Origin: Yuukianura sp. NJ FZ-2021 | Lineage: Eukaryota | Length of the DNA: 64,000 bases | Assembly: GCA_046563655.1 (NCBI GenBank) | Contig: JAJCTO010000014.1 | Span: 124,001 to 188,000 of the forward strand | Direction: 5' to 3' | Shown here: positions 1 to 39,700 of the stretch, piece by piece | Position numbering within the stretch: position 1 is the stretch's first letter | How the letters are laid out: each line of letters starts with the position of its first letter | Translations under genes and position numbers: made by a program | The notes under the pieces: model-generated | Told to the model about the DNA's origin: nothing | Seen by the model: the letters and a program-made list of their open reading frames with translations, nothing else | Database searches by the model: none

Positions 1-1372
1 TCACATTTTTCGCCATTTTTCGTAGCCTTCAATTTTTAATAAAAACTAAACCAAGTCAAAGTCAGAAAAGGGCGGAAAAATTTCATTTTGAAGGAAAATA
101 TTTCAAAATTGTTTTGTGTAGGGAGAAAAGTAAAGGGAAAATGAAAATTTTCCTTTTTTGAAATTTGTATGCAAATTTCACATTTTTGTTTAGAAAAACG
201 GCTTCTTTGGGTAAGACAAAAGACAAGTGAAAGTCAATTTGGGAAATTAGGTCCTTTATAATTACTTCTAACAAAATTGTTTCTTTTGTACCTCCGTAGG
301 TAAATTAGTGACAGTTAGGTTAGTTATGTTATGAAACCTTCACTTAAGTTATGAAGCCTAAAAGAAAAGCGGAGAAAGTTGTTCATTGTTCTGCTGTTGT
401 TAGTTGGTCATAATTTAATTACAGGAGTGGGGAAGCGGCAAAGTGAAAGCAGGGAAAGTCCAGAAATGTTTCTGGACTCTCGCGGACTTTCACCGCTTCT
501 GTTTTTGGAAACCGTAGGTTCAATCCCTACCAGGCGTCCCTAAAAGAGGCTTACAGCTTTTACGAGCCTTGTGCCCCTGAAAACGTAAAGCTGCTTGAGG
601 AGGAGAAAGCTGGAGTTGGGGAAAGTGAAATTTTATTTATTCATTGACTTCCTTTGCTTTATTCATCCTGTCCAACTTCCACAAGATCACTTTCCTCCAG
701 CACAAATTCCTCAAAGCTCCACTGCCACTACGAACCTCTTAATAGCAAAATCAAATCCAGCCAACCACATGGCAGTTCAGCAGTCAGCAGAAAGTCATTC
801 GGTCAACACACAAACAGTCAAAAGCAATTTAGTCAACAAGGGTTTCTAAACATTTGTGGAAAAATTTTTGACAAAATTAAAGTCAAAAATTTTTGACAAA
901 CGTTAAATCCTAAGGATAAGGAAGGCTACTGACTAATTTTTTCTTGTTAATTTAATTCGAAAATTGCAAAATCAATCCGTTTTGAAATAAAAATAAGAAC
1001 AAATTTAGAAACAAGAAAAAAAAAACAAAATAACAAAATTTTTACAAAAATTACAAAATAACAAAGGATTTAAGGGACGAAGCGCGAGCTGCAAAAGATT
1101 TAACTTTTTAAACAAAATTTATTAAAAAAGTTTACGTGGAATAAAATTTCGAAATTTGACTTGACTGAAGATTCTTTAAAAGTGAGAGTCTGAAATTCGC
1201 AACCCTAAACGAATTTGAGAATAATCGAATTTACGCTCCAATCATTCCGAAAGTGCCATTTAGCTTTCTAAAACCACAACAGAGAAAAAGAGAAGCACAG
1301 TTTTTCAAACCAACTTTTCGTTTTTTCATGTTCAAAAACATAAAAAGCAGCGAAGAAACCTTCGAGTACACT

Positions 1373-1870
1373 TATGGGGGGAGATTTGCTGATTAATGTT
1401 AGGAATTTTTCTACATTAGGAATTAATAAAAAAACAGGCTATTCCTAATGCAGAAATTCCTGACGTTCAATTCCTAATGCAGAAATTCCTGACGTTCAAT
1501 TTCTAATGCAGAAATTCCTAACGCAGAAAATCCTGATGTCCAATTCCTAACGCAGAAAATCCTGAGGCCGAATTTCTAACGCAGAAAATCGTGACGTTCA
1601 ACTCCTAACGTAAAAAATCCTGAGGTCCAAATCCTAACGTAAAAATTTCTGACAGTGAATTTCTAATGCAAAAATTCCTGGCAGCAAATTTCTAATGCAA
1701 AAAATGCTGAACCCCAATTTCTGACGTAAAAAATCCTGACACTCATTTTCTAACGTAATCAGCTGATTCCTAATGCAAAAATTCGTGGCGTGGAAAGTTC
1801 GTGTTCAATTCCTGGCGAGGAAAGTTCACAGACTTTCACTTTCTCTTTTTCATTCTCTCTCTATTGTAAC
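1373..1870 (+). repeat. Left TIR of the transposon, with an internal ~30-bp tandem array
   Basis: Reverse complement of ~9455-9939. Tandem units resembling AATTCCTAATGCAGAAAATCCTGACGTTC at ~1440-1790. Confidence 0.92.
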
Positions 1871-2180
1871 ACATTCTTTCTACTGTTGAGAGAGGGCGTC
1901 AATGGCATGCATAAAATACTTGGTTATGTGATAGTTTATTTACAAATGTTGAATGGCTTATATATATGTGCATGTAATATATAATATGAAAGTATTTACA
2001 ATCAAATTCAACCTCTTATACTAAAAACGAAGAGACAAATTCCAACAAAAGCTTTCTTGAAACCAGATCTTTTAGCAATAGTCGATTGAGTTAAGGATAC
2101 AGGGATACATTAATTAGATACAATAATGAGGATTACTTGAATTTTAAATCTAATTAGGCGTAGGAGGGTAGCGCTACCCA

Positions 2181-3424
2181 TTAATTAAAATAAACTCTAA
2201 CGAGGACTCGCAGTTTCTCTTTACAGATAGGACATCTTGGAGACTGTACTCTTCCAAAATCATCGCGCGGAACGTTCGCTTTTACGCCTTCGATGCATCG
2301 GAGACAGTACTGGTGGCCACATTTTAAAACGTACTCCTTGTTGTGATCGTAACAAATTGAGCACAGCATCTGCAGTCCATAAACGATTCATTACTGCTCA
2401 AATATTTATGCATACTTATATTCATGCCAGACTCGTTAGCTTACCCCCGTTTTTAGAGAGTCCATTTCCTCATTGACACGATGTGACCCTTGTTCCTTAA
2501 GAACTTCTTTGCGTCTTTTCAATTCCTTCAGTTCTGTTTCCATATCCCTGCAATCAGAGAATTGTTGCAGACAATTCAACATATGCTCTGCGTCATCGAT
2601 CTTCTTCTGAATTGTTTCCAGGTTAGTCAGCATTGATTCGAAAATTTCTGATGTAGGAGAGCGCTCTCCTAGTTTGCTTTGACAAACTTCCAGGTCAAGT
2701 TGGACCTCTTTAATTAAGTCGTGAAGCCTCGGACCTTGTATGCCAAACTCCTTCAATTGCGCAACAACCTTTGAGACTTTCGCGTACAGAGGTTGTCTAA
2801 CTTCGAACAATTGGTTTACAGTGAGTTGAAACATTTTGTCTTCCTCATCCCAAAACCGTGTTCCCCTGTAGAATTCTATATACTAAAACAAAAGAAAAAT
2901 AACACTTTTAAGATTGGCCGCAACAAAAAAACTAGGCTAGATTAATGGATCGCGCGATCCTTACGTTTCTCGAATGCGCGATACCATCCCTCATTGATGC
3001 TAGCCGCGACTTTAGTAGCTGGTGCAGTTCGGTCGCAGTTACTAAATCTTCGCGATGAGACATGAGAGTTGGCTTTTGGATATAGTATAAACCAAACTCC
3101 ACCTCTGCGATCACGTCCAGTTCAGCGTCAAGGTGCTTACGTAACATGTCTCGCTGCAATGAAAAGTTTCACGTTATTATCTTATCTCCTCTAGCAGATA
3201 ATGTTAAACAATGCATTACTTACATGATGAATAACTGGTGAAGTACGGATACTTTGCTTCTCTCGCCATTTCTGTTTCTCCGCTTCCGGTTTTGGAGCCA
3301 GCATTCTGCGTTCCGTTACTGCTGAACGTTTTGTTTGGATGGCGCCATCCGAGCGCATATCCGTCGTACAAGCACGTCGGTGATGGCCTAAACTACCGCA
3401 AGACCAACACCCACTGGAACTCAT
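2181..3424 (-). CDS. Transposon-borne zinc-knuckle (CCHC) + coiled-coil + C3HC4 RING finger protein (~338 aa, 4 exons)
   Basis: Exons 3424-3224, 3153-2965, 2882-2445, 2369-2181 join in frame via GT-AG introns. N-terminal CWSCGSLGHHRRAC (C-x2-C-x4-H-x4-C); helical middle; C-terminal CSIC...CGHQYCLRC...CPIC RING. Confidence 0.82.
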
Positions 3425-3840
3425 TTTAACGTTAAACAACTTTCTGGAATTTATAATGAATTGAATGTTTATAACTTCTGGATGCGTGTAAAACTAATTC
3501 TAAAACTTGGCCTGAAGCTAAACACTAACGAGCATCGTTGCACCCACCACTGTCATCTGTGTCTACAGTTCATAGCTAACCGCCGCAACCACATCGCTCA
3601 TGATTCCTACAACATGAACATTTGCTCAATTTGATTTCGAATGGTTTTTTATATTGAAATATTTCCATAAATTGTAAGGACAAAAGATAAATACATTACT
3701 TAAACTTAATTACACAATTACTATTATTCGTCCTTACTTCAGCCAAAATAACTGTGCGATTGGTGTATCTAAACCACTGCTATTTCGCACTACGAATTCG
3801 AATTTTTTAACTACGAATTCGAAAAGACTTATGTGGCGTG

Positions 3841-4198
3841 GAATTAAAATTTAGATTTCTCAAAAACGAAAGTCCAGATTTTGAATTCCTTTCGCAGGTT
3901 CATAGCGCGCATGAATCTGAGTACTTATGCAAAAATTTAGCTTTCGCACTGGTCGAAGTCGAAAGTTATGACCATCCGTTTCCACCAGCTTGGCAAGATT
4001 TGAGGTACTACAGAATTAAATTTTTGATTTCTCAAAAACGAAAGTCCAGATTTTGAATTCCTTTTGCAGGTTCATAGCACGCATGAATCTGAGTCCTTAT
4101 GCAAAAATTTAGCTTTCGCACTGGTCGAAGTCGAAAGTTATAACCATCCTTTTCCACCAGCTTGGCAAGATTTAAGGTACTACAGAATTAAATTTTTG
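3841..4198 (+). repeat. Tandem direct repeat (~172-bp unit, two copies plus a partial) inside the transposon
   Basis: 3841-4012 and 4013-4184 are nearly identical and a third start is at 4185. A degenerate echo lies at ~4283-4400. Confidence 0.9.
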
Positions 4199-4890
4199 AA
4201 TACAACTGATACAACTGAACAAACAGTAATCACTAAGACTGATTCTGACGATACATAATAAAAATTAATTAATACACTACAGCTCAAAAACGACTGTCCA
4301 GATTCTGAAATCGTTTTGTATACTTAAAGCTTCTATATTGAAGGATGTTTCAAGAAATTTGTAGCTTTCTTGCTGCTCCAGGTCAAAAGTTATGACAATT
4401 TAATTTCAAAGCCTACCCACTCTCGCTTAAATAAGGCTTTGAGCCTTGGTAGCTTAAATCGCTCACAGAAACGATGCCTATCTTAACGCCTTAAAGTAAA
4501 GATAAAGTACCGTATTTTAAAGCAAAACTGTTTTCATAAGGTTTCATTGATGAATTCCACTGGCGGTCAAAAGAGATTATGTTTTACGTTAAATTAAATT
4601 ATTAATTAATTATCATATCTCATTAATTAATTTATTAATCAACTATCAATTAATGAAAGAACGGGTTGAAAGCCCACGTCTTCTACTGATTTCTGACTAT
4701 AGGTTGTCAATATTCATTTCTTAAAAAAAGTTGAATAAGTAACTGACCACCGAACAGTTCGAGTTCTGACTATTATCCAGACCCCTCAGGTATTTCTTTG
4801 GAACCTGTTTACTTCCCGTGTTTTCACAGTATTGAACTCTATGCTTATTGCATTTCGTGTAGCGCTACACTTTTAGGTGCATTGCTGGTT

Positions 4891-6593
4891 ATGGAGCACC
4901 TAACGCAGCAATCCTTACGTTGCTCAATCCAGCAACTCATCAACGCTTTAAACGAAGGTGCGGATTTAGACATAGTCACACAAGGTTTAGATTTCCTGTT
5001 ATTAGAACTCGAGCTGTGTAACCAACAGGAACACTGGGTTGTGGAATCGGTGTCTAAATTGACAGAAGTTACAGGTCTATTGGTGCAGCAGTTGGAAGGG
5101 GAAACATTGCGCAAACTAGGAAGACCGAGAATTCATATTCCTATTGAAGATATTGAGTTTTTACTATCCTTCCGGTTCAAAGTCGTGGATATTGCCAAGT
5201 TGTACGGCGTGTCAAGAGATACAATAAGTGGACGCCTTCGAGACCATGGGATTTCGGTAAGTACTGAGTTACACCACGCTTAGCGCTAAGCAGTAATTGG
5301 AATGGGCTGACTCTGTTTTGTGAACAAAATTTTCAGGTTTCTCACAGCTATACAAACTTAACTGACGAGCAACTACACTCGGAAATGCTGAAAATCTTAG
5401 AAGACTTTCCAAACACAGGCTACAAACGAATGAAGGGATTCCTCTTAAGCAATGGAATTAAGGTGGCTGACAAAAGGGTTCGACTAGCTATGAGGCAAGT
5501 TGACCCTGAAGGTGTCGCTCTACGACGACGAGGCAACAGAGCCATAGTACGCCGGCAATATACAATGACCTACTCCAACGAGCTGTGGCATTTGGATACA
5601 AATATGAAGTTGATCAGGTTGACAAGTATAAAAACAGCAGTTTAAGGAGGTTGGAAAGCGCTTTCCGTTGTTACATTTTTTAAGTTTATTGCAGGTGGAA
5701 CATTATAATCAGGAGCTGTATCGATGGGAAGTCACGGGTTGTAGTTTATCTGGATGCCAGTGCCGATAACACGTCAAAGACTAATTTAGAATCATTCTTA
5801 AAAGCTGTGACAAAATATGGTATTCCTTGGAGGACTCGCTCGGACAAAGGCGGAGAGAATGTGTCAATTGCTCAATTCATGATTGAAAACCGTGGAGCTG
5901 GAAGAGCAAGTCATATTTGTGGTAGATCGGTGCACAACCAAAGGTGAGTAGCGCTACTCCAGAAAACAGTAGTGTCATCTGATAAAACCATAATTTTACT
6001 TTGTAATTATGTTAGGATTGAGCGGTACTGGAGAGACGTTTACTATGGGTATACGAGCACAATTGCGAGTGTACTAATTGCGCTGGAGGAGGATGGGTAC
6101 CTGGACATAGATAACCCGAAGCATGTAGAACTTGTCCACTTAGTATTCGTTCCAAGAATTAATGACGCTTTGGAAGTTTTTCGAAATGCCTGGAATAATC
6201 ACCCATTGTCGACGGAAGGAAATTATAGTCCAAATCAGCTCATGCTACTCAACCTGCCGCCTGATGACCATGTCCAACACATTTCTCAGGTACTTTGCGT
6301 AGCGCTACGCATCGGACTTGAGAAAATAAAATGTTTTTATCATGAGGAATATACCAAATCCGTTCCTGTTTCCCTAGGAGGATGTGGACGACTACTTGTG
6401 CCAGGACATGTCTGATGTTGCGTACCTGCTTCCACCGGATGTGGATTCGATAACATCGCCAATGAATTTGGCTGGAAGTATTACAGAAATTGAATTGGAT
6501 AGACTAAGACAGCTGGACTTCAACCAACCGTCATCCAGCTTTGGCTTTGACATATTTGTAAACGCAGTGAACCTACTTGATTTTACATCGTAA
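4891..6593 (+). CDS. DDE transposase / integrase-core protein (IS3/IS481-like, ~461 aa, 5 exons)
   Basis: Exons 4891-5256, 5337-5617, 5695-5943, 6016-6289, 6378-6593 total 1386 nt in frame. HTH-like IAKLYGVSRDTISGRL; catalytic motifs LWHLDTN, IDGKSR, RSDKGGEN, SVHNQRIERYWRDV, WNNHPL. Confidence 0.92.
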
Positions 6594-6834
6594 AAAACGA
6601 AGCTTGTTTAATCTGAAAAACATTAAATAAATTAGTGTGGCGCCGCACTACAGAATATAAGCTGAAATCATATCAGTAAGAGGTTTTTCGCAAATATTGC
6701 TACATGTGGCGCCACATAAAACGAAAATAATAATCTGAAAAAACTAAACTAGAAGTAAAGTAGCATGGGTTTTGTGAAGTTCGAATTAAGTAGAAACATA
6801 ACGCAAAAGCAATAAGTACACTTCCTCCGACGTG

Positions 6835-9250
6835 TTAGACTCCCCCGAAACCGTTGCTTGCGTACCGCACGACGAGATTCAACTTCTCCACTAGTTCCGT
6901 GCAACTGATATCATTCGGAATTTGTATTTCGTTGAAGCACGCACGAACCATAAAGTCAACATCGTCTTCAAAACGTACAATTAAAGGATCTTCCGGTAAA
7001 ACGGGCCAACCAGTCCACGCGGACAGCAGATTCTGTAGACCACCTGAAACTAAATATAGCAGTTAGTATGTTGAGCATTCCGGAGTAGCGCTACTCAACT
7101 TTGAGTAACGTAACTTACGCAGTTCCAAAGATTGTATGAAGCTGGTTACAACCGAAAGCATTTCTTGTCTTCCGTGACATTCGATTTTGGAAATAAGCAA
7201 ACTGGAAGGATAATTAAGTGCTGAACTCCGAGGAAATAACGATTCAACTAAGTACGACTTTCCTTTCAGGAATTCACTCAGTCCTGCGCACGTAAATCCA
7301 GCTTTAATCGCCTCCAGTTGTGCAACGCGACGGTCGACCACGGCATGATATAACACTTGTTCTATGACAAAGCCAGAGTTGTGTTTGTTGACGATTTCTC
7401 CGAATTCCGATGATTCTGCCACCTCTTGCACATGCGCTGCCTCATCCTCCGTTAGAGTGGCGCCACTCTGCAGTTTCGCCAACTAATTTTTTTCAAAAGT
7501 TGCTTGAAATTAAATCAAAGGTTAAGTTAATCAAACAACAAAATGATTAAGTTACCAATGCAACTGCTTCACGAACGTGAAGTTCTGGAACGTCCTCCAC
7601 GGTGATAGGAAGTGGCGTATCACTATCAACGGTTTCAAGAAGTACGTACTGCGCAACCGCCTCACTCAATCCAATAAACGCGATTCCGCAATGTAAAGCA
7701 GCGTGACCCAAAAACTTTCCAATCGTTTTGAAAACCCCAGCGCGTAGGAGCCTTCCATCTGTTGCCGGAACCTTGTGGTCTAGTTCACCTTCGAACGCAG
7801 GAAGGCCATCTATCTTGTCTTGAACTAATGCCGTCAGTCCTTTCCAAAAGTATTCACGAGTTATTGCTCCAATGTCGGCCCCTTCAAAATGTCAGTTAAA
7901 ATAAACTAAACATTTTAATTAATTTAATTAGTTGGATAGCGCTATCCTAGTACCGGGTTCACCCTGAAATTCTACTTTTGGTTTCTTCAGGAAGTTGAAC
8001 GCAGGATCCTTGTAAATGCCAAGAATTTTTTCTAGAAAACGCTCTCTTGAAGCAAGAATATACTGAAACCCTTCGTTTTCCATGTAAATTTGTTCGCGAT
8101 AATGGTCCAATGTCAATAGTTCTCCCTCGATTGATGGCGATGAGTTCGCAGATGTAGCATCCGACAAAGGCAAGTGATGATTAACAGCACCCTCGATTGT
8201 TGAATTTAATACCGAAGGCTGTCGTCCGTCTCCAATTGGTGTCTACAAAATGGATAACGCCATCCATTAAACATTGTTTATCACTAACATCAACATAGAA
8301 CTTACAACCATATAATTTGAGCGAGGAAGTTGAAGATTAAGTTCAGGTTCGGCAGTCAAGCCTTGTTGAAGCTCCTCTGAATCCAGTCGTATGGGCTGAT
8401 CAAGCTGAACATCCACTGCTACGTGTGGTAACGGTTGTTCAATTCCTTCCGCAACCTGTGTCAAGTGTACACAGTTCTAATTACAATTAGTTTTGATTAG
8501 GATAGCGCTATCCATACAAAGCAACACTTAAAATGAGTGAGTGTAGACGAGGAACGTAACTTACACTTAAAATGTCGGAAACTGGCTGGACGTAGATAAC
8601 TGCAAGTCGAGAAGCGCGTAAATGCAGCACACCAGGCACTGGCTCCGTGTTTGAAACTCGAACCAATGGCTTCCCTTTACCACCAGTCAGTGCACGATAC
8701 AATACAACATCTACTCCAACTAGTTTTGGGAAAGTGCTTTCCAGTGCCGCCTTCAATGCGTCAGTTGTTGCAGTGGGATCTAGCAAAGTAACAATTGATC
8801 ATTACCCATGCCACACTTTACGCCTTTATTTAAAAAAAACTAACCGATTGTGATAACTTCTTCCCCTAGTCCATGCCTTTTGAGAAGTAGCATACGAGAT
8901 TCGATTGGTGTTTTCAATTCCGAAGGTCCACCAAGACAGCAGTACCTGGCAGTCCAAGGCCTTATATTACGTACCGGAATGGAACGTTGTCGAAGTGCTG
9001 GGCGCCCAGTTAAACGCAGACCAGCAGCTGAAGTCGATGGTCTCGGATAAGGTGCAAACAGGCGAGACATTTCGGATCGCGCGAGTCCATTGGTAGAGCT
9101 TCCGGATTGACCTTGTTCTTGTCTTCGAGTTACCACTGGTGTAGTGTGACCCGGAGTCACTGTTGTAGCTGTGGGAGACTCAACGCCAAGTAAACTAGCA
9201 AGTTGGGTAAGAATTTGAGTAGCAGTAGCTCTGGTATTTCCATCCGCCAT
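6835..9250 (-). CDS. Transposon-borne HECT-domain E3 ubiquitin ligase (G2E3-like, ~652 aa, 7 exons)
   Basis: Exons 9250-8845, 8779-8565, 8455-8306, 8242-7954, 7881-7556, 7482-7119, 7043-6835 total 1959 nt in frame. HECT motifs VEFQGEPGADIGAITREYF, FKTIGKFLG, AWTGWP, catalytic-type RACFNEIQIP, C-terminal GFGGV. Confidence 0.87.
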
Positions 9251-9454
9251 ATTGGGCTGATTTGTATGAGTTCCGGTGTTAGCAAACCGTCACGACAAAA
9301 TTCTACATTGATTCAAATACAGTATTTGATATATCGCAACACTTATCCACTTCAGAGTGGCGCCACTCAACAGACGTGTAGCACTACACCTAAAAATGTA
9401 AAGCTAGTGTTTTTCACTGCAGATAACGCCCCCTCTTGACGGTTGGAAGAATGT

Positions 9455-9939
9455 TTTTACAATAAAAAGTGAGAATGAAAAAGGGAAAGTGAAAGCATGT
9501 GAACTTTCCTCGCCAGGAATTGAACACGAACTTTCCACGCCACGAATTTTTGCATTAGGAATCAGCTGATTACGTTAGAAAATGAGTGTCAGGATTTTTT
9601 ACGTCAGAAATTGGGGTTCAGCATTTTTTGCATTAGAAATTTGCTGCCAGGAATTTTTGCATTAGAATTTCACTGTCAGAAATTTTTACGTTAGGATTTC
9701 GACCTCAGGATTTTTTACGTTAGGATTTGGACGTCACGATTTTCTGCATTAGGAATTTGACGCCAGGATTTTCTGCGTTAGGAAATGGACGTCACGATTT
9801 TCTGCGTTAGGAATTTAACGCCAGGATTTTCTGCATTAGGAATTGGGCGTCACGATTTTCGGCATTAGGAATAGCCTGTATTTTAGACATTCCTAATGTG
9901 GAAAAATTCCTAACATTAATCAGCAAAACTCCCCCCATA
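9455..9939 (-). repeat. Right TIR of the transposon, with an internal ~30-bp tandem array
   Basis: Reverse complement of 1373-~1870. The inner segment (e.g. GAATCAGCTGATTACGTTAG) is near-identical; outer tandem units are more diverged. Confidence 0.92.
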
Positions 9940-12900
9940 TACACTAACTGAGAGAGAGTGTAGTTTGTAGTAAACCGAAACGCATCAATCATGGTTTGAC
10001 AGATGAACAAACTTACACAAAAGCCTAAAACCACATAACATCCTCCGTAAAAACGGATCCTACCTTCCTCCTCCTCCACCTCCGGCCTCCTCCTCCTCCG
10101 GAGTAGCAACAACGGTGACATTCCGTTTTTGTTCAAAAGAGAACAAAAGGAAGTCGGTTTGTGCGGAAGACGACTTCTGTTCTACTCAGGCCCGGTTTAT
10201 TTTTAGCGTCTGTTTCCTCTCCTACTCCAAATAATGTTTTCGCATTTGCAAATTGGTTTTTGGCGGTTCCCTGTTTTTTGGCATGTCTCTTCGAATTATC
10301 CAAACTTCTTCCAAAATGGAAATTGAAAACGAAAACTCAAAATGGAATTGACTCATGTCCTACATGTATTCCATGGAATTTAGATTTTCAACACACTTTT
10401 TGACAAAACAACATCATTATTTTTTTGAAAACTGTTTTTTGATTTTTTTTTTTTGAAAATGAAGAATAGGAGGAAGTTCGTGACAGGAGTGAAAGTTAAA
10501 AGCGGAAAATGGCTTTTGCAAAGAGCGGGAAATCTCGTAGTGCATCGCATGTTTCATCGTCTGATGGGTTAATAACTTTCTCCGCAGGGAAAGTTCGGGT
10601 GCTAAAACTAAAATGACAATTAAGTCCACGCAAAGACACACACACATACACGTCTGATTTCAACACGTAAAAAAAGCGTGTACAAAGACGTGTACGTGTG
10701 GTTCATGTTGACGCTTGAGGACAAACATTCATAATTCGGCTTTTCTTTTATCTGTGAGATGATCAGCAGATGTGATCCGAAAATCGGTTGAAAAGAAAAT
10801 TTTCTTGTGGAAAATTGATATGTTTAGGCTGTCTGTCATGATGATGATGTTGGCGTGACCTCAGGTCAACTTTTTTGACATTTGACGTGTGACATGTGTG
10901 CCAATACTGTTAGTGACATTGACAGTTATGTTTAATCTGAATTAGGAATCTGCAAGTACAAAACCAGGATCTGGAATGTTCGGAGAAGTCAAGAGATAGC
11001 ACTGCCTCGGCCTACTCTGCGTTTTACCCTACATTTGGAATACCCGTATCCAAAAATGGTGTGAGACATGACATACCACTCGTCATCCAGGTTATGATAT
11101 GGACACATTTAACTACTTTTTGGAAAGTTGACCTTTGACCTTTCAAAGTTGACCTTTGATGTTTTGGTTTTCAGTTGGGTGGTGGGGGGTCATTGGTCGT
11201 TTCACTCCAAGTCAAATTCTACAAAGCTCAAGATGAAAAGCATTCCGAATGGGGTAATGTGCAACAGAAAAAAAAATCGATGAGCATTTTTTTTTAAACA
11301 TGAAATGTATTTAGAAATTTTTGGAAATGTTTTTTGAAAATTGTTTTCGAATCTTTACTGATTTTCTTTTGTAGGAAGTTCACTTCATTGCATAGAGTAC
11401 GAATGCAGTTATATCCCAGGTGAGAACCAGTGGAATTGGAAATTTTTGTTTCAAAATTTTGAAATTTTGAGATTTCGAAATTTTGAAGCAAAATTTGTGT
11501 TGCCATTTTGTGTTGTTCAACAGGTGCGGAGCGAGTGATTGTGACAAAGGAGACTTACAGGTGACATAAATAATTTGTCAACTTCGTAGGATTTAATAAC
11601 TTTCGCATGTTAATTCAAGTTGAAAGTGATTGATGAGTGACCTCATGTTGACCTTTCCAGATTAACCAACAGCAAACCCCGCCTATGCTAAAACCAACGT
11701 TTAAACTTACGCCAATTCAGACCTGGATATGACCCTACACCGTCTGGGAAATGTGCGATTAAGACAAGTGACTTATCAGAGGTCAACAACAGTGACGGCG
11801 ACAATTGCTCTTAACCCTCAACTATTCTTTTACTCATGCTCTCTCAACTAATCGTAATTAAACTCACTTTTACCTTAATTAACCAACTTAGGGCCTTAAA
11901 CCTCCAGTTAGTTATGTTAACCTTAACTTTAACTGAGATTCACACCTTGCCTCTTGTGAGAAAGTTAGGACCAATACATAAAGAACCATCACCAATCATG
12001 TTTTAAAATTCACTATGTAAGAGATCTCTGCCATAATAAAAACTTATCCCAAAAATCTACTAAAAAATCACTCAAATGATTAGTTTCCTTAGTTTCCCAA
12101 TGTATGTGTATGAGAATCCTCGAAATTTCAAAATTTCTCACACCATAGAAGTAACCATGGATTTTTATTCTCAAAATGTAAATGTTGACCCCCCTTGCGG
12201 GAGGTCATGTCCAAAAAGTCAATGAATACTCATTGAGTTGTCCCCCTCCACGGAAATCTTTAGTAAAAGGCGAAAGATTTATACGTCTTGAAGGGAGACC
12301 TGAGTTGGTTTTCCATTTGAACTGCACGGTGCTATCCACTTCTACATTGAAAAATACATGCTGGACCATGCACATATTAAGGACAATTTAATACCGAAAT
12401 AATAACAACTGATAGTATATTTTACGTTAATTTTGAAGCATATTGTTTGAAAAAGTTAATTAGTGTTGTCACTGTTTTAGGTAATTTGATATACGTCAGT
12501 TAAAATTGTTTCATTTAACGATGAAATCTTTTAATTTGTAGAGTTTTTGGCAGTTTGAAATTTCACTTCTGCCGGGCGCCAGATTCAAATTCAAATTTTT
12601 GGTTTGGCGCTGCATGGTTTCACTAAATTTTTCCTTTTCTCATTTCTAAACCCACAAACTACTTTATGGGATCATAAATAGGCACCGTTAGAAAAATTAT
12701 CGCCATATTGTTATGAACAATCCTAGTGCAAAACTTAAATACAATTAATTACAACAAATGCAATACTAATTTAAGTAATTTAAACTAAGTTTAGTATGTT
12801 TAATGATCAGAGGTTAATCGCGTTAAGCAGATTAAGAAACTCAAAAATCAATAGTGCCCAGACATACTAGCTGGTAGTGATAAGTAGCCTATTGCGAAAC

Positions 12901-13105
12901 CAAAAAAAAATTCGCTTCGCTTCAGTTCGATTTGTTTTTTTTTAGATAAAAACAAAGTGAAGAGGAAGAGTGGAAGTGGAAGTGGAATCGAATTGGTAAT
13001 TGAAGAATTTAATTGACTGAAAGGTTACGTAATTAGTGCTTGAGTTAACGTTGTTCTAACGCACCGGAAGCCGAGGGTCAACTGTAAGTGTAAAACGGAA
13101 GAATA

Positions 13106-15220
13106 ATGGCTGATCCACTTTCAATTCTTCGTCAGTACACGATAGCTGGTAAATCGGCTGTGGAAAAAGATGAAAATATTGTCATTGGCGAATTTGCGTG
13201 GCGTAAAAATGTCAAAACTAATTATATGGTCTATGGGTAAGGTTCATAAAATTTGTAATTTTTACTTTATTTTAATTTTTAAAGTCACAAATTGATTGAA
13301 TTTTTGAATCTAAAGTCTATGTCCTGTAATCGTCTAGATCTGGGAAGGACGGTGCCCCAAAGGACTACTACACACTTGAATGTCTCGTATTTTTGTTGAA
13401 GAATATCCAGTTGAGCCATCCTGTCTACGTTCGGCGTGCTGCAGTCAGTAACCTCCACGGAGTTCATGATTTTTTGTGCTGGAAGGAACTGATGATGTGG
13501 ATTGTTTTGTGTTCTTATCACTTTGTCTAGGCCGAGAATATTCCGGTGGTGACACGTCCAGATCGAAAGGATATTTTGGCCTATCTGAAAGGAGAGAGCA
13601 CAACATCAAATAGCATCGATAAGTCAGCTCCGCTTGAGATTCCGACACAAGTGAAGCGAACTGCTGAAGAACCAGCGGAATCCTTAGCGAAGAAACCTAG
13701 ATTTGAAGATACGCAACTACAACGCGTCAAAGATGTCCTTGCGGCGAGACTGGATGCTCCCAGAGAAGCCCCTGTTTCTATCAACAACATTACCAAGTAA
13801 ATTCTAATTTTCAAATTGAATTTATAGCAATTCGGTTTCCTTAATTTCCTTTTGTTTTAGATCTCTCTCTGATGCAATGTCTGTTGAGAAAATTGCTGAA
13901 ATTAAGGCCAAACGACTTTCCAAGAAACGAACAACAATCAAAGGGCATGATGACATCGAGATGGGTTCCGACTTACGAACAATTCTTGATTATGATTTGG
14001 ATGTGACCAAGGACATTGTTTCAAGAGAGAGACAATGGAGAACACGGTCGACCATTCTGCTAACGAATGGAAAACAATTTACAAAAAGTATCATGGCTAT
14101 ACTAAATGCTGTCAAGAGTCGTGAAGAGGGAAAGCCTTTGCGTCCGCCCGTTGCGGCTCCGTCCTTAACGACTCCCAGGGGTCCAGCTCCTGTGAGACAA
14201 ATCCCTCAGACACAAGTTTACAATCGATATGAACAGGATAGGTTCAAGTCGCACGAAGGTAACGTCAATAATTGTCAAAATTCATGACTTGCAAAGGTAC
14301 CTTCTTACAAAGTGAACTTTATGTCTTCAATTTTTTAGAAACGGAGGGATTTAAAATTGACACACTGGGTACTTACCATGGTATGACTTTGAAATCTGTA
14401 ACGGAAGCAAACACACCGAAGAAGCCGTTCACACCAGCAACCTCCCCTTATACTCCTGCTGTTGTGGCAGTAAGAATTTGACACAAATGACATAACAGTG
14501 TCCATGACCTTTTGACCTTGACTGGTTTGATACTCTATTAATTTTTATAGACTCCTGGAAAAAGTCCTATTACACCGCCCTCGAACAAGCGTGTTTCCAA
14601 AACACCGATTATCATTATCCCTGGAGCGAATACTTCTCTAGTCACCATGTACAACGTCAAGGAGCTCCTGCAAGATCTCAAGTTTGTTCCCACGGAAGAA
14701 AAGAAGGCTCAAGGGCTAAGGAGAGACAATGAAATCTTGATCCATCGTCAACGAAACGGCGTCTCTGTTCCGTATCGCATAATTGACAATCCACTCAAAC
14801 TCAGTCCACAGGATTGGGAACGAGTGGTGGCAGTTTTCGTTATGGGTCCAGCATGGCAGTTCAAAGGGTACCCTTATGATGGAAATCCTGTGGAGATCTT
14901 TTCAAAAAGTATGCTGAACAATTTACCCAAGCAATCGGAAAATGTTAAAAAATATTCTCTTTTTTGTAGTCTCCGCTTTTCATTTGAAGTATGACGAAAT
15001 GAAGTTGGACTCGAACGTGGCCAAGTGGGCAGTACATGTCATCCAACTGTCCAGAACGAAGAGACATCTAGATCGAGCGGCTCTTATGACGTTTTGGGAA
15101 AAGTTGGACGCGTAAGTTAGCAAGTTATGTGGATTTTAAGACAAGGAGAGTAGAGAAATTAAAGAACTTGCGGTATTTTTTAGATTCATGGCCAAGTCGA
15201 AACCATTTCTTCGCTACTGA
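13106..15220 (+). CDS. CDC73: Parafibromin / Hyrax (PAF1 complex subunit), multi-exon
   Basis: [11 protein letters not shown]..., [59 protein letters not shown]. About 8 exons, stop at 15218-15220. Confidence 0.96.
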
Positions 15221-16206
15221 AAGTGACAAGGGTTTTCTGAGGACCTCGTTAGGAATGTTAATCAATTGACTATACAATTTTTTGACTAATTTACCAATAA
15301 TAATTACTTTACTTCAATTACATTTGTATCCTTTGAGTTTGGGAACATCTACCTTACGTTCAATATGCTTCGTTTACTTGTACATTTCTGTTTAAACTTT
15401 AACCTAACCTTAAGTATTATTTTAGCAGTTATACGAAAATTAAAATTAAATCATTAAATACTTTTACTAACAATGTTGTGTACAATTGCAAATAGTTTTA
15501 ATTGAAGGTTTCGATTATTATTAATCTTTAATTAAGAACTGATTAGTATAAATTTGGTCACTTTTCCAGAAAAAGGACGTGGGCGCCCTCTCGTATGCCA
15601 AAAGTTGCCCATCACCGTCCAATCGGAAAATCCTTTGTGTACAAACAAAGCGTAAAGTGTGTCAGTGTTGTTGTGTAATTGGAGGGGAGAAGACGTAATT
15701 CATCATCACCTTGCGAAACTTGCGATTTGCGAAAAGGTAGGATTGATTTGATTGATTAATTAACCTTTTGATTAATCGACTTAAAGAAATTGAACTACGT
15801 AGTTCTTTCGTTGCCATGGCGGATTCCATGATTCCAGCCTGAACCATTTTGTAGAACCTAAATATTTAACTCTCCTTTGGTGTTGTGTTGCAGTATTCCT
15901 TTCCATTCTTTCTACCCATGCTTTTTACCGTCTTCGATGGTCATCGTTTTCGCTGCTATCTCGATCGAATCCTTCGGTAACTAACTCTTGTTGCCAGTAA
16001 TTGATTCTTCATTAACAATCACGCTGAAACTTATCATCGTTCTATGTTCATCTACTAAGCGTGAATAACGAGATACGCGACTAGAGTTTAGCAGGTAAAG
16101 ATGGAACCCACATGACGTAGTCACTAACGTTTGGTATGGAATATGGTTTTCATCGAAGTAACTGTTTATCCGTAGATACATCGGGAGGAGCAATGCCGAC
16201 AGAAGC

Positions 16207-19200
16207 ATGGCAAGAGAAGAGGCGAGCGCATGGAAGCCACGTTCAAGCTTTCATAAAGTACGACACTGCTTTACAAGGATCACTTAGGAATTGATCAATT
16301 GAGTTAATCGATTCTTTAACTTAAGGGGGAAGCAATTAAGTGACAGAACTAAACAAAGGCAAGCAGATGATGGCGAAACTGAACCAACTGAAGAACCAGA
16401 AGCAGAGGAAGGAGAAGACACAGCGGAAAATGCTGCTGAAGGTGCAGCTTCAGCGGAGCAGGCTGAGATTGGAGACAAGCAGCTTCGAGAACTAAGGGCC
16501 GAGTACTTGAGAATCCACGATGCTCCTGAATACCACCACAAGATTGTTTCCATCACACACTTCTACATTCCCTTTCTGGAACTCTTCTGCTTCTTGTGGG
16601 AATTCTTCATTTGCTTGGTCATTATTCTGACATGTGTCTTGGCCATTTTTCACACCGTATTTTCATTTGCCGATCCACTAGTTGAAGATATTACGATCTT
16701 CCTCAGTTTCGTCTACGGAGCTGACGTGCTGCTCCGACTTATAATTGAAATTCTACGAGGACATTTTGCGACGATCTACCTCGTCTTCAAGGTTCAGTAC
16801 ACTTTTGCTCAATTCGTCTTCGATCTGTTAGTGCTGCTACCGATAGTGGACCTGAGCCACATGATTTGCAATCTTGCCATCCCAGACGCGCTGGACTGGG
16901 TAGCAACTGTTCAAATTTTCTACTTGTTCAAACTCTTCTCACTGTATCGCCTCGAGAGCTACTTTTGTAAGTGCGATCTATTGCCTAATTTACATAAATG
17001 TATGAAGTATAAGATTATTCTTTTGAATTTAGCCAAACTCAATGAGGACAACACCTTCAACAACAAGTTTGTACATATCTTCAAGCTGCTCTTCTACTAC
17101 ATCATTTGCTGCGAACTGTTTTCAGCTTGGCTGTTTGCGGAGTGCAGTGGTGTAAGGTTTTGCAGAACTTATTTGTTAACAATTTTTGGTTAATTGATGT
17201 TGTTTTTTCAGTCGTACTTGGAATGGCTTCTGCTCAAAGGTCCGTTCCTCGTTGATGATCGTAACACCAGTTGCTACTTGACGTTCCGACGACGTCGAGC
17301 GTTGTTTCTTGACAAAGAATTGATGCATCAACTGCCAACAGCTCAGGACTTGTTTTTTCTTACAATGGATTTTGTCGTTACGATTCTAACAACAACCGGG
17401 TAACAGAAACCGTAATCTCCGATTTTATCCAAACACGGTTTGCTTTTATTTTTCTTGCTTTTTAGAAAATTTGGAACGATTCCGCTCACAAATTGGGAAT
17501 TTGTGATTGTCATACTCATCATCTTCGCGTCAATCCTGATAAATGGTCATTTGGCAAGCCATATGCTGGATTTCTGCATTGAACATGATTCGGCCAGCTA
17601 CGAATTGTTCCACCGTCTCGATTTTGCAGAAAACCTTTACGTAAGTATTTAAAGAAAACGAGTAAAAATAGTGATAAAATTCAAGTATATTATTGTCATA
17701 TTTTTAGAAAACATCATGTCCACACTATTTCATACATAGGATCAATGTAAGTCAACGTTCACAACGATGCTTTTTGATCTCCTTAATTTTGAAATTCTAA
17801 TGTTGTTTTTTTTTTTCAAAACTTTATAGGAATATTACCTCTTCTTCTGGAATTTTCGTCAAGGTGTGAAGGAAAAAGACCTCAATGCTCTTCCAGGACC
17901 AATGCACGAATCAATCATGTACGCCTTTGGATTAACACTGAAAAAATGATTCACGAACAGACCTTCATTTTTAACTAGTCTTAGTGTATTTTAATTTTGA
18001 TGGATCAACAGGATCAACATTTGTCAAGAAATATTCGAAAAGAGTTTGTTCTTCTACGACCTTGAATCATCGTTTCTAACTGCTTTAGCCCAGAAATCGG
18101 AATTGGTCATCTACAATCCAGGCTACATTCTTTGTTCTCCTGTAACAAGGTGCAGTAACATGTTTTTCCTACTTCAAGGAGAACTGATTGTCCGCAGCAA
18201 GACAAATATGCAGCACATTTCAGCACTTCTTCGACCTGGTTGTATAATTGGAGAGATTAACCTCCTCTTCTCAATTCCATATGACCATCAAATCGAAACT
18301 AAAGTAAGCTTTATACGTTTATGCTTTAGTACTTTCCAAAATAACCAACGTTGCTCAATTTGATAAATTCTATAAAAAAAAAAAACCTGTGATTTTTCTG
18401 TATTTTCAGTACGTTTGTCAAGCACTGGTGATTAGCAGCGAATCGCTTTTTCAACTACTCGAACTTTTTCCTCATCTTGTGCAAGTTCTTCGAGAAAAGT
18501 TTGGGGTAAAAACGTTCTTGCTTGCAACGTTTTCCAATTTCAATGGACTTTTTTCAAAGTGTCTCGTTTTTTGATTTAGCGATTAACCGAAAAACTATCA
18601 AGAGACTACGAGTTTATTGGCACGTATCCGTTCCAGTATGCTGTGCGTAAAGAGGACCGGCAGTCCAAAAATCCAAGATACACTATGAGAAGGTTTGTCC
18701 AGGTTTCTTGTTTCTGAAATATTTTCGGTATTTCAAAAACATATTTTACATTTTTTTTACGTTTTGTTGCAGAAAAGTTTTCATTCACACAAGACGAGAC
18801 GATGTTACTGATGACTCTGCCAATACTTACATTATGACCATGCCTACCTATGCTGGAGAACACACGAGAGTAAAGAATCAAACTTTTTAAAAACTTGATT
18901 TTCTTTGACCAATTAATTGAATTAAGTATTTGATTATCCGCCTTGTAGGATTATACTCGGCCATACCGCTCATGTCCAGTACCGATCATCTTTTTTTCGG
19001 AAACGTCCTGGACAAGATTCTACAACATATTCGTGGTCGTCGTTATTTTGATTCTCGGAGCAGTTTTTCCAGCATGTGCAGCATTTCATCAGGACTTGAC
19101 AACAAATGAACTGGATCTAAGCATTTGTCAGTCACTGGCTGACTACTACGTCATTGACTATGTAATTCCAGTTGGAATTGTCGTCATGGTCATTCTGGAA

Positions 19201-36709: not shown

Positions 36710-39700
36710 CTAAGGTGACGGTGACCTGGAACGATGTGCCAAGTACTTGGATGCTTCGTATCGCTTCTTAGTAGACTTTCGACGCTGATGAAGATTTAGA
36801 TTTGGATGTGAATTGGTAAGACGAGTATTTTGATTCATCACCGCTGTAGTACTACGCTGCGCTTCAATCTTACTTTGATGGAGGGAAGAGGAAGAAGACG
36901 CTTTTGTTCCTAACGACGGCACTGTAAGTCTATTGGACTTTTCCCCATAGTTGCCCGGAGTCAAATGAATAATTGAATTTGGAAATTTTTTGCCTAGGGA
37001 GGACTCAATAATTGGAAGCGTTGGATTTGAAACTGATTTGCTCATGGATCCAAACGGAACGTTCTGTCGATACTCCTGGTCATCAACGTGACCTCTAGGC
37101 CGTGTGCTGGAATTGGTCGAAGTGACGCTCAGGTTGTAGATATAGAAGGCCTCATTTCCGGCCTTCAACTGCGATCGAAGTTGAGAGTAGCTCTGGATCT
37201 GGAATAGAAAACGACGGTTCATTAGAAATAATTGGTAAGTTGAGTTAAAATACGATAATTTATTTTGAAACTTTAACAATTTGGGAAAGTCTGCAAGTAT
37301 CGGAGATGTTTTCTATTGATCTCTTTCGGTTTTTGCAGGAATTGGATAGAAAAGTGAAAAAAGAGGGTTTGCGTGTTTTCTAAAGAGGTTTGACCTTGAT
37401 TTTCCTCAAAAACATTTTAAGAGTTCGGAAATCAATGAAAATCTAAAAGGTAAACAGGATTTAACTAACCTGAAATTTAAAAAACAAAAAAAATGTTTCG
37501 GAAATCTACTATTAGGGGCCATAAGTCCTAAAACCAGGTTTGGCTGTTGTGTTTTCAGACGAGTCTGTCCGTCTGTATGTCTGCCTGCATATTATGATGA
37601 AGTTGGGGATTTAGAAAACCTACTTTTTGAAATTTCTCTAACTATTCTGTTTAAAATTTTATTCAATTGATTTTGAAGTTATGTTTATTTGAAAAGTTTG
37701 ATTGATTTTTGTTTCTACTTACAGCTCGACCGGTCAGCGTTTCCATCCTGGACTGAACAGACCTTGGAATTTTGACTGCCAGACCCAAATCTTTGACCAA
37801 TTCCTGGAACTCCTGTGACACCCGAGTATTTAGCAGTACTTGACTCTGGACAGTTGGATCTCCACCGTTGATGACCCGAATAATCTGTTTGTTGAGTACA
37901 GTCGTCGGAGCATGTGCTAGAGCCTGGCTTTCTTCAATGGCTGCTCTCAGTACTTTTTCAGCTTCAACAGCACTCTGCTGAAGTGGCCTTGTGTTTCGTT
38001 CACTTCCGCTGGACCAATCCTGATGTGGTGACCCCCAGACGACCCCATTGAGTGACCTTTCTCTTCGGACTCTTATGATTGGTGGCTTTCTATTTGATGG
38101 AGCCGATGGAGGACGACTTCGACTTCGGCGCTTGCTACTAGCACAAGTACCTTTGCCATTTCCTTCTCCTGTTCCAGTTTCTACAACTTCGCCACCGTAG
38201 TTCAAGGCCTTCAAAAGTGGATACAGTTTGGTTAGCATCTTTAGCGAAACAGTGGCCTTGAAAAATGTTTGCTAAGCTGAGAATTTTTGCAAACTTGCAA
38301 ACTAGCTCAACTAACTCTTTGATAACGTTGCCACTTTGAGACTGGTAAACTGGTTGTAAAAATTGCACAATTTATAGCGTTCGTAGAATTTTAATTTCGT
38401 GAAACGAAAAAATTGTTTTTGGGGAGGAGATCATTTCAGGTTCAGTTTTTGGCAAACATCACGAGCAAGTCAACATTTCACAATTTTTTTTGCAAACATT
38501 TTCTGACTCTTCTCGTGTAACGCTTGAGGCAGGTTAACTACTGGTGTGCGTCACAAAAAAATTGTAAACAGGTTACTTCTCGAGAACGTCGTTTTCTTTA
38601 CTACGAAAAGTTAATCTCTTGTGCAAATTATTATAATCCTTGTCTGTTTATGTTGACGAGACTTTAGCAAAAAAAAACTGCTAATTAACTAATTTGTCTT
38701 CCAAGAAGTGCTTTTCTGCTTCTCTGTGCTAAAATGTGTCTGAATAGGAAATCTACATCTATGCTCCATTTCAAAACTTTATTCCGCCTGTGTATTTCTC
38801 TGGTCCCCGCTCCCACCGCCTCCCCCCTGTGTTGTTGGGTTCAAAACTTTAGGAGAAGACACAGGGGGAGGCGGTGGGAGCGGGGACCAGAGAAATACAC
38901 AGGCGGAATAAAGTTTTGAAACGGAGCATAGTTTGTACATCTAGTTTTTAAAAACCTTTTATTTTTATTTTTTTTTTTGAAAATTTTTGAGTTTAGTTTT
39001 CCTAACTTGTTCAAGAACATGTCACGTTTTTTTTGACATCTATCAAGTAAAACATGCGTCAGTGAACAGAACAACGCGGGTGATGTTAGTTGCAATTTCT
39101 CAAAAAATGAGGAAAATTTCTGAAAAATCATGACAGTTAAATTGATAATTTACCTTGAATTTTTTAGTTGACGACACCACGTAGGCATGTTCATGTCTGA
39201 GATCATCCAGCGTCTCAATCGGGTCACCATGTAGAGTAAAGATGAATCTTACTCCACGGGGTAACTTGAGTCGCTCAGACAAAATGTCACAGAGACCATC
39301 GAAGTTATGGACATCCCGTCCAGGACGAAATCGATACTCGAATCTCGGTAAATGCTCATCTCCATTGATATAAAACCGAACAATTTTGGCCACCCACTGA
39401 TCCATGTTTTGTCTCCGCAGAACTCCAGGTACGTTTCCACCAAAGCCCCGTCGATTCCTGCTGTCTCGTTCATCTTCGGGGTAAATCGGAGAGAGTCGTT
39501 TCGGAAGAACAGCGGGATACCGAACCTGTTTAATATTCAAAGGATTGAGAACTGTGATGGACACGCTATTTAGAGCTCCCGGGAGTGTTAGAATGGTTGA
39601 AGGTGTCAAGTGACCCGGGGCATGCGAAAGAGGCAAGCGATCGCGCTTATCTTTTGTGTCACTTTCAATGTGAACTCGGCTGAACAAGGGGGTAAACTGT

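Follow-up and report, generated by a model that had tools for sequence, protein, structure and literature searches.

An intact, polymorphic IS3EU/GingerRoot transposon with predicted HECT-like and RING/CCHC genes beside its transposase

A stretch of 64,000 nucleotides from Yuukianura sp. NJ FZ-2021 (GenBank assembly GCA_046563655.1, contig JAJCTO010000014.1, positions 124,001 to 188,000; hereafter the window) contains three predicted genes enclosed by inverted repeats. One encodes a transposase, one a protein with a divergent HECT domain, and one a protein with a CCHC zinc knuckle and a RING domain. Do the two ligase-like genes belong to a transposon, are they host genes that came to lie inside it, and are their products ligases at all? 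The reading that we consider quite probable is that the locus is an autonomous, recently moved transposon of the IS3EU/GingerRoot superfamily, that its HECT and RING/CCHC genes are long-standing genes of the lineage and were not captured, and that their products would act as ubiquitin ligases.

Boundaries and mobility of the element

The element is a single unit of 8,567 bp, bases 1373-9939 of the window, which are exactly the coordinates proposed in an initial annotation made from the letters alone. Its left end reads TATGGGGGG and its right end reads CCCCCCATA, and its terminal letters are TATGG..CCATA. The outer 59 nt at both ends are the arms of terminal inverted repeats (TIRs) that are 92% complementary. 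The left TIR, which starts with TATGG, lies at 1373..1431 (+ strand) and was delimited by an inverted-repeat search and by a search with its 34-nt end; the right TIR, at 9881..9939 (- strand), terminates in CCATA. Within the window, the first 34 nt have only two occurrences, one at each end of the element (0 and 1 mismatch), and they had no match in any of 100 shuffles. A perfect 6-bp target site duplication (TSD), TACACT, directly abuts the element on both sides (1367..1372 and 9940..9945); the TIRs and the perfect TSD had both been recognized in the initial annotation. Arrays of a 29-bp repeat, with about 10 copies per end, follow at 1441-1739 and 9570-9872. In the left subterminal region (1441..1860, + strand) the repeats are succeeded by a unique stretch that is mirrored at the right end, and the right subterminal region (9468..9872, - strand) is the mirror of the left one. 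Repeats and inner unique stretch together are seen as a 349-nt inverted pair (95%) at 1512-1860 / 9468-9816.

According to the accessible parts of the respective papers, IS3EU elements have TA..TA termini and a 6-bp TSD (PMC10045372), and fungal IS3EU elements have the termini TAYGG..CCRTA and a 6-bp TSD (PMC12730594). The element in the window combines a DD35E integrase-core transposase, a 6-bp TSD, TATGG..CCATA termini and TIRs longer than 30 bp. It resembles IS3EU and GingerRoot elements, as the accessible text describes them (2019, PMC6839031; Kojima 2023, PMC10045372), in its IS3/IS481-like DDE transposase without an HHCC finger, its 6-bp TSD and TA..TA termini, its long TIR and subterminal regions, and in coming from an animal, the known hosts being mostly aquatic and other animals. 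By these sequence features the element belongs to the IS3EU/GingerRoot superfamily, while its gene content was not found described in the literature searched. The initial annotation read the structure correctly, as an IS3EU-type cut-and-paste element that is intact and has HECT and RING genes inside its TIRs.

Four Logan contig sets were compared with bases 600-10700 of the window. Runs X1, X2 and X4 are one sample; run X3 is from another study and bears another organism label. One contig each in X1, X2 and X4 joins 1366 to 9940 and skips 8,573 bases, and at this joint, with its ends TA..TA, six letters fit either side and leave the flank with a single TACACT. Since the joint is without the element and has one TSD copy, the insertion is polymorphic, and since the three runs are one sample, the empty site counts as one observation. 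The polymorphism supports the proposal, made in the initial annotation, that the element was recently active. Other contigs exit at 1373 (two in X1) and at 9939 (six in X2, four in X4) into flanks that differ from one another; the ends of the element are therefore also present at other loci. A 5,028-nt contig of X4 spans 4491-9500 and shows 161 differences along with 32 gaps; a further contig, of 2,162 nt, spans 2014-3960 and shows 29 differences. Another copy or allele, diverged by about 3%, therefore carries all three genes. The initial annotation had said that its reading would fall if other copies lacked the HECT and RING genes; this second variant has the same genes. Run X3 holds pieces of 862, 547, 378 and 311 nt that are identical to the window and include parts of the transposase and HECT genes, as well as an internally deleted derivative over 1883-9438, with joints 2938->4013 and 4739->9057, in which element sequences enclose a remnant of the RING gene. 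The element is intact, polymorphic and multi-copy.

The summed word depth in X1, which is not a measure of copy number, is 4-6 times higher in the subterminal bins than in the element interior, and the ends are therefore probably common to more, shorter copies. This is the observation that favors a chance composite, in which two copies of a short non-autonomous element flank host genes by chance; the initial annotation had likewise allowed for the HECT and RING genes being host genes. However, what is missing from the empty allele is precisely the 8,567 bp up to and including both TIRs, together with one TSD copy. The TSD flanks the whole unit, the type of the transposase fits the termini and the TSD length, and a related element (L004, described below) has the same pair of transposase and HECT genes enclosed by TIRs and a TSD. 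A chance composite is therefore highly improbable.

The three predicted genes

The gene models are open frames joined across GT-AG introns of 63-88 nt, with predicted junctions. The coding introns predicted in this way number 13, and one more, suspected to lie in a 5' UTR, ends at 4876. As the initial annotation had claimed, three spliced genes lie inside the TIRs; all three models are open, with 461, 659 and 338 amino acids. Database searches used single exons as queries, which makes them less sensitive than searches with the spliced proteins.

The transposase gene (4891..6593, + strand) has five exons (4891-5256, 5337-5617, 5695-5943, 6016-6289 and 6378-6593). Its predicted product of 461 residues has an N-terminal helix-turn-helix (HTH)-like region and a DD35E core. 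Exons 3 and 4 match the Pfam family rva_4 (Integrase core) with 104.8 and 74.3 bits, and there are weak Pfam HTH matches on exons 1-2. The DDE triad, which the initial annotation reported as retained, is D209/D266/E301 with spacings of 57 and 35 and does not vary among the 14 aligned sequences. Relatives of this protein are "Integrase core domain-containing" proteins from fish and a springtail.

The HECT-like gene (6835..9250, - strand) is convergent with the transposase gene and has seven exons (9250-8845, 8779-8565, 8476-8306, 8242-7954, 7881-7556, 7482-7119 and 7043-6835) that encode a protein of 659 residues. Two of its junctions have in-frame alternatives (donor 7953 or 7962; acceptor 7044 or 7050), and those that preserve the family motif GEPGADIG..REYF were chosen. 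At E<=1e-3 an exhaustive HMMER search with exon 5 finds 213 proteins, of which 42 reach E<=1e-10; a word-index search with the same exon among longer proteins, which is weak evidence, gave no match. The named full-length relatives belong to many teleosts and to the springtail Allacma fusca, with many paralogues per species, and some of the relatives, fish proteins among them, are labeled "G2/M phase-specific E3 ubiquitin-protein ligase-like". When 14 relatives are compared with Pfam HECT, five score above the cut-off (35.5-54.7 versus 23.9 bits), four score below it, and five are unmatched.

Several alignments connect the window protein to this family. A hidden Markov model built from 13 relatives, with the window protein excluded, aligns to the spliced window protein with 189 bits and covers residues 335-658 in addition to a conserved N-terminal block at 94-172. 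In HECT ligases the catalytic cysteine stands about 32-36 residues from the C-terminus in a T/A-C-F-N context. The cysteine of the RACFN motif, 33 residues before the C-terminus, shares a column with the TCF cysteine in all 11 relatives that have a C-terminus, which agrees with the claim in the initial annotation that it is retained, and in the family profile alignment it is aligned with the HTCFN cysteine of WWP1. The terminal GFG and the N-lobe GxxRExF motifs are also kept. A profile of 57 relatives and the seven exons of the window gene matched 63 PDB sequences, and the best 60 of the 63 are all HECT ligases; its match to WWP1 has an E-value of 5.7e-14 and covers the whole domain. The only PDB match of the HECT exon searches, MccE, has an E-value of 0.93 and is attributed to chance. 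An AlphaFold model was computed for a relative, P0065, which was used in place of the window protein. Its N-lobe has a predicted local distance difference test score (pLDDT) above 90, its C-lobe and N-terminus score low, and the mean is 58.5. Foldseek gave 33 matches for this model at E<=0.001; among the matches listed, all are HECT structures, with target TM-scores of 0.37-0.46 against single HECT-domain chains. On the basis of these alignments, the family of the gene is HECT, and the predicted window protein represents it at full length and retains the catalytic residue.

The RING/CCHC gene (2181..3424, - strand) has four exons (3424-3224, 3153-2965, 2882-2445 and 2369-2181). Its predicted product of 338 residues consists of a CCHC zinc knuckle, a coiled coil and a C-terminal C3HC4 RING. 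Exon 4 matches the Pfam families zf-C3HC4 with 31.2 bits (cut-off 21), zf-RING_UBOX with 32.9 (25.2) and zf-C3HC4_3 with 28.7 (27). All eight C3HC4 ligands are present, as the initial annotation had stated. The first exon encodes a C-x2-C-x4-H-x4-C knuckle at residues 6-19, which scores 20.4 bits against Pfam zf-CCHC, just below the cut-off of 20.8. The middle exon of 146 residues is coiled-coil-like and has no family match, and a search of the ESM Atlas with exon 3 returned only unrelated helical proteins with scores of 0.80 or less.

Related elements, dispersed palindromes and surroundings

Relatives of the transposase were obtained from metagenome contigs, and 80 of 388 confirmed loci were examined. 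HECT neighbors were sought by tblastn with the window protein and 168 family proteins (E<=1e-5). A HECT-like neighbor is present in 16 of the 80 loci; the corresponding numbers are 15/53 for loci with at least 1.5 kb of flank, 9/37 for at least 2.5 kb and 5/20 for at least 4 kb. The HECT-like gene is downstream of the transposase gene and on the opposite strand, which is the layout of the window, in 14 of these 16 loci. The transposases of the HECT-bearing loci are 34-52% identical to that of the window. In a tree of the transposase cores of the window element and the metagenome loci (FastTree, 78 tips, midpoint root) the window element groups with L001, L002, L016, L035, L046, L055 and L057. 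All four of the clade's loci of at least 3 kb have a HECT-like neighbor, and the other three are contigs of 1.4-1.9 kb; the HECT-bearing loci outside this clade are spread over the tree. Near-identical transposases occur with and without a HECT gene (L022 and L027; L051 and L043), which fits frequent deletion derivatives. Locus L051 also has an ORF (open reading frame) for an LTR (long terminal repeat)-retrotransposon polyprotein (RVT_1, RNase H and integrase; 13297-17307, - strand) adjoining its IS3EU copy, and a sub-threshold UCH (deubiquitinase) ORF at 6724-7083 (- strand; 22.5 versus 23.9 bits).

L004 contains a complete element of 7,444 bp (9225-16668) with TATGG..CCATA termini and the TSD GATAGA. 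Inside it are an intronless transposase gene (rva_4, 286 bits) and an ORF for a HECT C-lobe (Pfam HECT, 39.1 bits); no RING was observed in this complete element. RING genes were found at three other loci. In L016 a homolog of the window RING protein adjoins the transposase gene (31% identity in two segments, about 200 residues, with a near-identical CCHC knuckle), the HECT C-terminus is on the other side of the transposase gene, and all three genes are on one strand. L055 has a RING ORF (zf-rbx1, 34.8 bits) that is upstream on the strand of the transposase gene, two CCHC patterns that are likewise upstream, and the HECT gene downstream. L048 has a RING ORF (zf-RING_2, 33 bits) on the HECT strand beside the transposase gene. 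The three RING-bearing relatives are a lower bound, as the regular expression for an unsplit RING missed the intron-split RING of L055. The only match of this expression in the 80 loci, in L070, is LIM-like and was rejected as false. A perfect inverted repeat of 46 nt at the ends of L055 (2-47 / 5510-5555) was not accepted as a TIR; it reads like an Illumina adapter and is taken as an assembly artefact. The content of two ligases recurs in relatives, and its arrangement differs. In the sequences compared, the HECT gene has long accompanied the transposase gene in conserved synteny; the RING/CCHC gene, as the third member, varies more.

In L048 the RING ORF lies upstream of the HECT-like gene on the same strand (3757-5816, - strand), and the two may encode one RING-HECT protein. 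The domain order of G2E3 is RING and then HECT.

All three genes of the window element contain perfect palindromes centered on GCGC. There are 16 of at least 12 nt; 15 of them reach 14 nt or more, a length that no other palindrome in the element attains. They start at 2166, 2654, 2947, 3337, 4857, 5278, 5653, 5946, 6296, 6704, 7083, 7454, 7934, 8500, 8998 and 9355 (whole span 2166..9368). In 300 Markov shuffles, palindromes of at least 14 nt averaged 0.69 for any kind (maximum 4) and 0.017 for the GCGC-centered kind, and the remaining 54 kb of the window contain one GCGC-centered palindrome of this length. The half-site is G-N-R-T-R-G-C, and its variable positions always match the mirror position. 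Neighboring palindromes are 293-566 nt apart, with the exception of a 1.5-kb gap over the central non-coding region. Eight palindromes are in coding introns, four in exons, four in untranslated regions (UTRs) or intergenic, and none in the termini; they are restricted to the three gene bodies and their UTRs. That they run through all three genes argues that the genes evolved together as one unit. Outside the element there are four GCGC palindromes with a length of 12 nt or more and at most one mismatch, three at 48076-49156 (18, 12 and 12 nt) and one at 46262; two of the three overlap a frame of 333 amino acids (48191-49192, - strand) that has no Pfam match.

Relatives within the clade have palindromes with other cores: L035 has three with GCGC (63, 417 and 1095), L016 has four with ACGT (23, 576, 1143 and 1850), and 10 of the 11 in L046 (348-2540) have TCGA. 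Together these loci hold 18 of the 29 CG-centered palindromes of at least 14 nt within 542.5 kb of loci. The dispersed palindromes of the window and its clade relatives are 12-18 nt long. In the orthologous intron 1, the palindromes of the window and L035 differ by one mirrored pair of changes (A>G / T>C), and the rest of the intron is not alignable. Variation of this mirrored kind points to pairing, or to a symmetric reader in co-evolution with the respective element. Two explanations were rejected. Thirteen of the 16 palindromes fold into a short stem with GCGC in the loop, but their energies are ordinary (-3.7 to -11.1 kcal/mol, z -2.2 to +0.64) and only 2 of 16 are matched by 10 or fewer of 200 shuffles, so that a stable monomeric RNA hairpin is not supported. 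Decay by methylation is not indicated, with a CpG observed/expected ratio of 1.02 in the element versus 0.92 in the rest of the window and no CpG loss.

These data bear on the possibility that the true element consists of the transposase and HECT genes only and that the RING/CCHC gene joined it recently as a passenger, through capture from the host or as a nested element. In its favor, the order and orientation of the genes vary among L016, L055 and L048, L004 has no observed RING, and the protein collection yielded no sequence relatives. However, the homolog in L016 adjoins a transposase gene of the same clade, the RING gene has 4 of the 16 GCGC palindromes as the other two genes have theirs, the deletion derivative in X3 keeps part of the RING gene, and the empty site is without the whole unit. 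We give the passenger explanation little credence. The two ligase genes are genes of the element and not host passengers, as the initial annotation held; they are counted as such because of the empty site, the second variant and the related elements elsewhere in which HECT-like and RING/CCHC genes lie beside the transposase gene or, together with it, inside TIRs.

A central non-coding region (3425..4890) separates the divergent RING and transposase genes. It includes a 172-bp tandem repeat (2.1 copies, 95%) at 3841-4199. At about 4251-4541 many run contigs break off and the summed depth climbs sharply (3,665 in run X3); this stretch is probably a separate high-copy repeat that is nested in the element or common to it. 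The only match in an Rfam scan of 1000-10300, CRISPR-DR36, is sub-threshold (24 versus 38 bits) and is taken as chance. Host genes detected in the window are exons of CDC73/parafibromin (13820-14994), a doublecortin-domain protein (39100-41334) and C-terminal exons of a dynein heavy chain (60543-63206), which identify the host as an animal. The element lies within gene-rich DNA, about 4 kb from the detected CDC73 exons.

The proposed ligase role

Several observations weigh against the reading of the locus as an autonomous, recently moved element with two long-standing ligase genes. All empty-site contigs are from a single sample, perhaps that of the assembly itself. The splice junctions and the transcription of the three genes are predictions. 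Among the exons of the window gene, only the last matches Pfam HECT, aligning to the C-terminal end of the profile with 13.4 bits (E 0.062; cut-off 23.9); the HMMER confirmation of HECT suggested in the initial annotation is thus obtained at the level of the family, and single exons of the window remain below the cut-off. Exons 5, 6 and 7 had no HECT match among PDB sequences (phmmer, single exons). By tblastn, 64 of the 80 loci, and 15 of the 20 with at least 4 kb of flank, are without a HECT-like gene, so that either not all members of the superfamily have the gene or deletions of it are frequent. RING exon 3 found no relatives in a word-index search of the protein collection, which is weak evidence, and the RING protein has no detectable sequence relative beyond L016 in the searches made. 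The RING genes of L055 and L048 have domains in common with the window protein, and their sequences are not alignable with it.

Some of these points also favor accessory proteins that are not catalytic and transfer no ubiquitin. The HECT-like domain would then provide a scaffold or a binding surface, and the RING/CCHC protein would be an adaptor that binds nucleic acids, for instance when the transpososome is assembled. Strong divergence of the HECT domain is indicated by the sub-threshold score of its last exon and by the single exons without a match to a solved HECT structure. The C-lobe of the modeled relative has low confidence (pLDDT below 50 over much of 624-723), and fish relatives carry names that refer to the G2/M phase-specific ligase. 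The HECT domain of G2E3 has been reported to act unlike classical HECT domains. However, the cysteine column is kept in the window protein and 11 relatives, and the GFG and GxxRExF motifs and the eight RING ligands are kept as well. Retention of catalytic residues across elements whose transposases are 34-52% identical is what a working active site would show, and we regard a non-catalytic function as unlikely.

In the reading that we favor, with ligases encoded by the element itself, the TIRs and the 29-bp subterminal repeats are presumably the binding sites of the DD35E transposase, and insertion would proceed by a 6-bp staggered cut, both as expected from the family. The HECT and RING/CCHC proteins would act in trans as ubiquitin ligases on proteins of the host or of the element. 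Candidate targets are the transposase itself and factors that act in repair, chromatin or silencing, and their ubiquitination would favor transposition or persistence of the element.

Several known systems are comparable, as described in the accessible parts of the cited papers. OTU or Ulp1 domains occur in Ginger1 transposases, Ulp1 in Mutator and OTU in Helitrons, and a wide involvement of the ubiquitin pathway in transposition has been proposed (Bao et al. 2010, PMC2836005). The element resembles these transposons in encoding enzymes of the ubiquitin pathway; theirs are deconjugating proteases, mostly fused to the transposase, whereas here the enzymes are separately encoded and predicted to be conjugating ones, E3 ligases. 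In fungal IS3EU elements an alpha-kinase gene lies opposite the transposase gene, with a TET/JBP gene between them (PMC12730594). These TET+ elements (Kojima 2025, PMC12730594) are likewise multi-gene elements with an accessory gene opposite the transposase gene and further cargo; they encode an alpha-kinase and a TET/JBP dioxygenase and are from rust and truffle fungi, whereas the element in the window encodes HECT and RING/CCHC proteins and is from an animal. The proposed role of the ligases would parallel that of OTU and Ulp1 in Ginger1, Mutator and Helitron elements and of the alpha-kinase and TET proteins in fungal IS3EU.

The accessible descriptions of IS3EU and GingerRoot (PMC6839031; PMC10045372) do not mention a HECT, RING or ubiquitin gene, whereas here two ligase genes lie inside the TIRs. 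The GingerRoot paper has no mention of HECT, ubiquitin, RING or ORF2, and there is no mention of HECT or ubiquitin in the accessible text of the IS481EU and Hydractinia papers, the latter of which states that structure and function of IS3EU are mostly unexplored. No description of the pairing of transposase and HECT genes was found in the accessible literature; Repbase entries and supplements of papers may list such ORFs. The multi-copy "G2E3-like" or uncharacterized HECT proteins of teleosts and Allacma fusca belong to the same family as the window gene, and the same taxa hold related transposases. They are annotated as products of host genes, whereas the window gene is a gene of the element; a link between these proteins and IS3EU transposases is not stated in the sources examined.

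A further possibility connects the ligases to the palindromes. In this clade of animal IS3EU transposons the CpG palindromes could be element-specific "self" tags on DNA or nascent transcripts that address the RING and HECT ligases to the element itself, a speculative proposal that we think doubtful. The palindromes would then be read by a protein of the element, for example the CCHC-knuckle/RING protein or the HTH region of the transposase, and the ligases would be brought to element chromatin or RNA, where they might remove silencing or repair factors or time transposition. If this were true, the element would encode a sequence-addressed E3 ligase module without a described counterpart.

Cut-and-paste transposons that encode ubiquitin-conjugating enzymes were not found in the literature searched; on record instead are deubiquitinase and SUMO-protease domains, and the kinase and TET cargo of fungal IS3EU. 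The window copy is intact and polymorphic, which makes it a good candidate for a study of transposition. A transposon origin would explain part of the multi-copy "G2E3-like" HECT genes that fish and springtail annotations list as genes of the host. The occurrence of the transposase-HECT pair across distant IS3EU lineages suggests that ubiquitination is a part of the movement or the survival of this superfamily.

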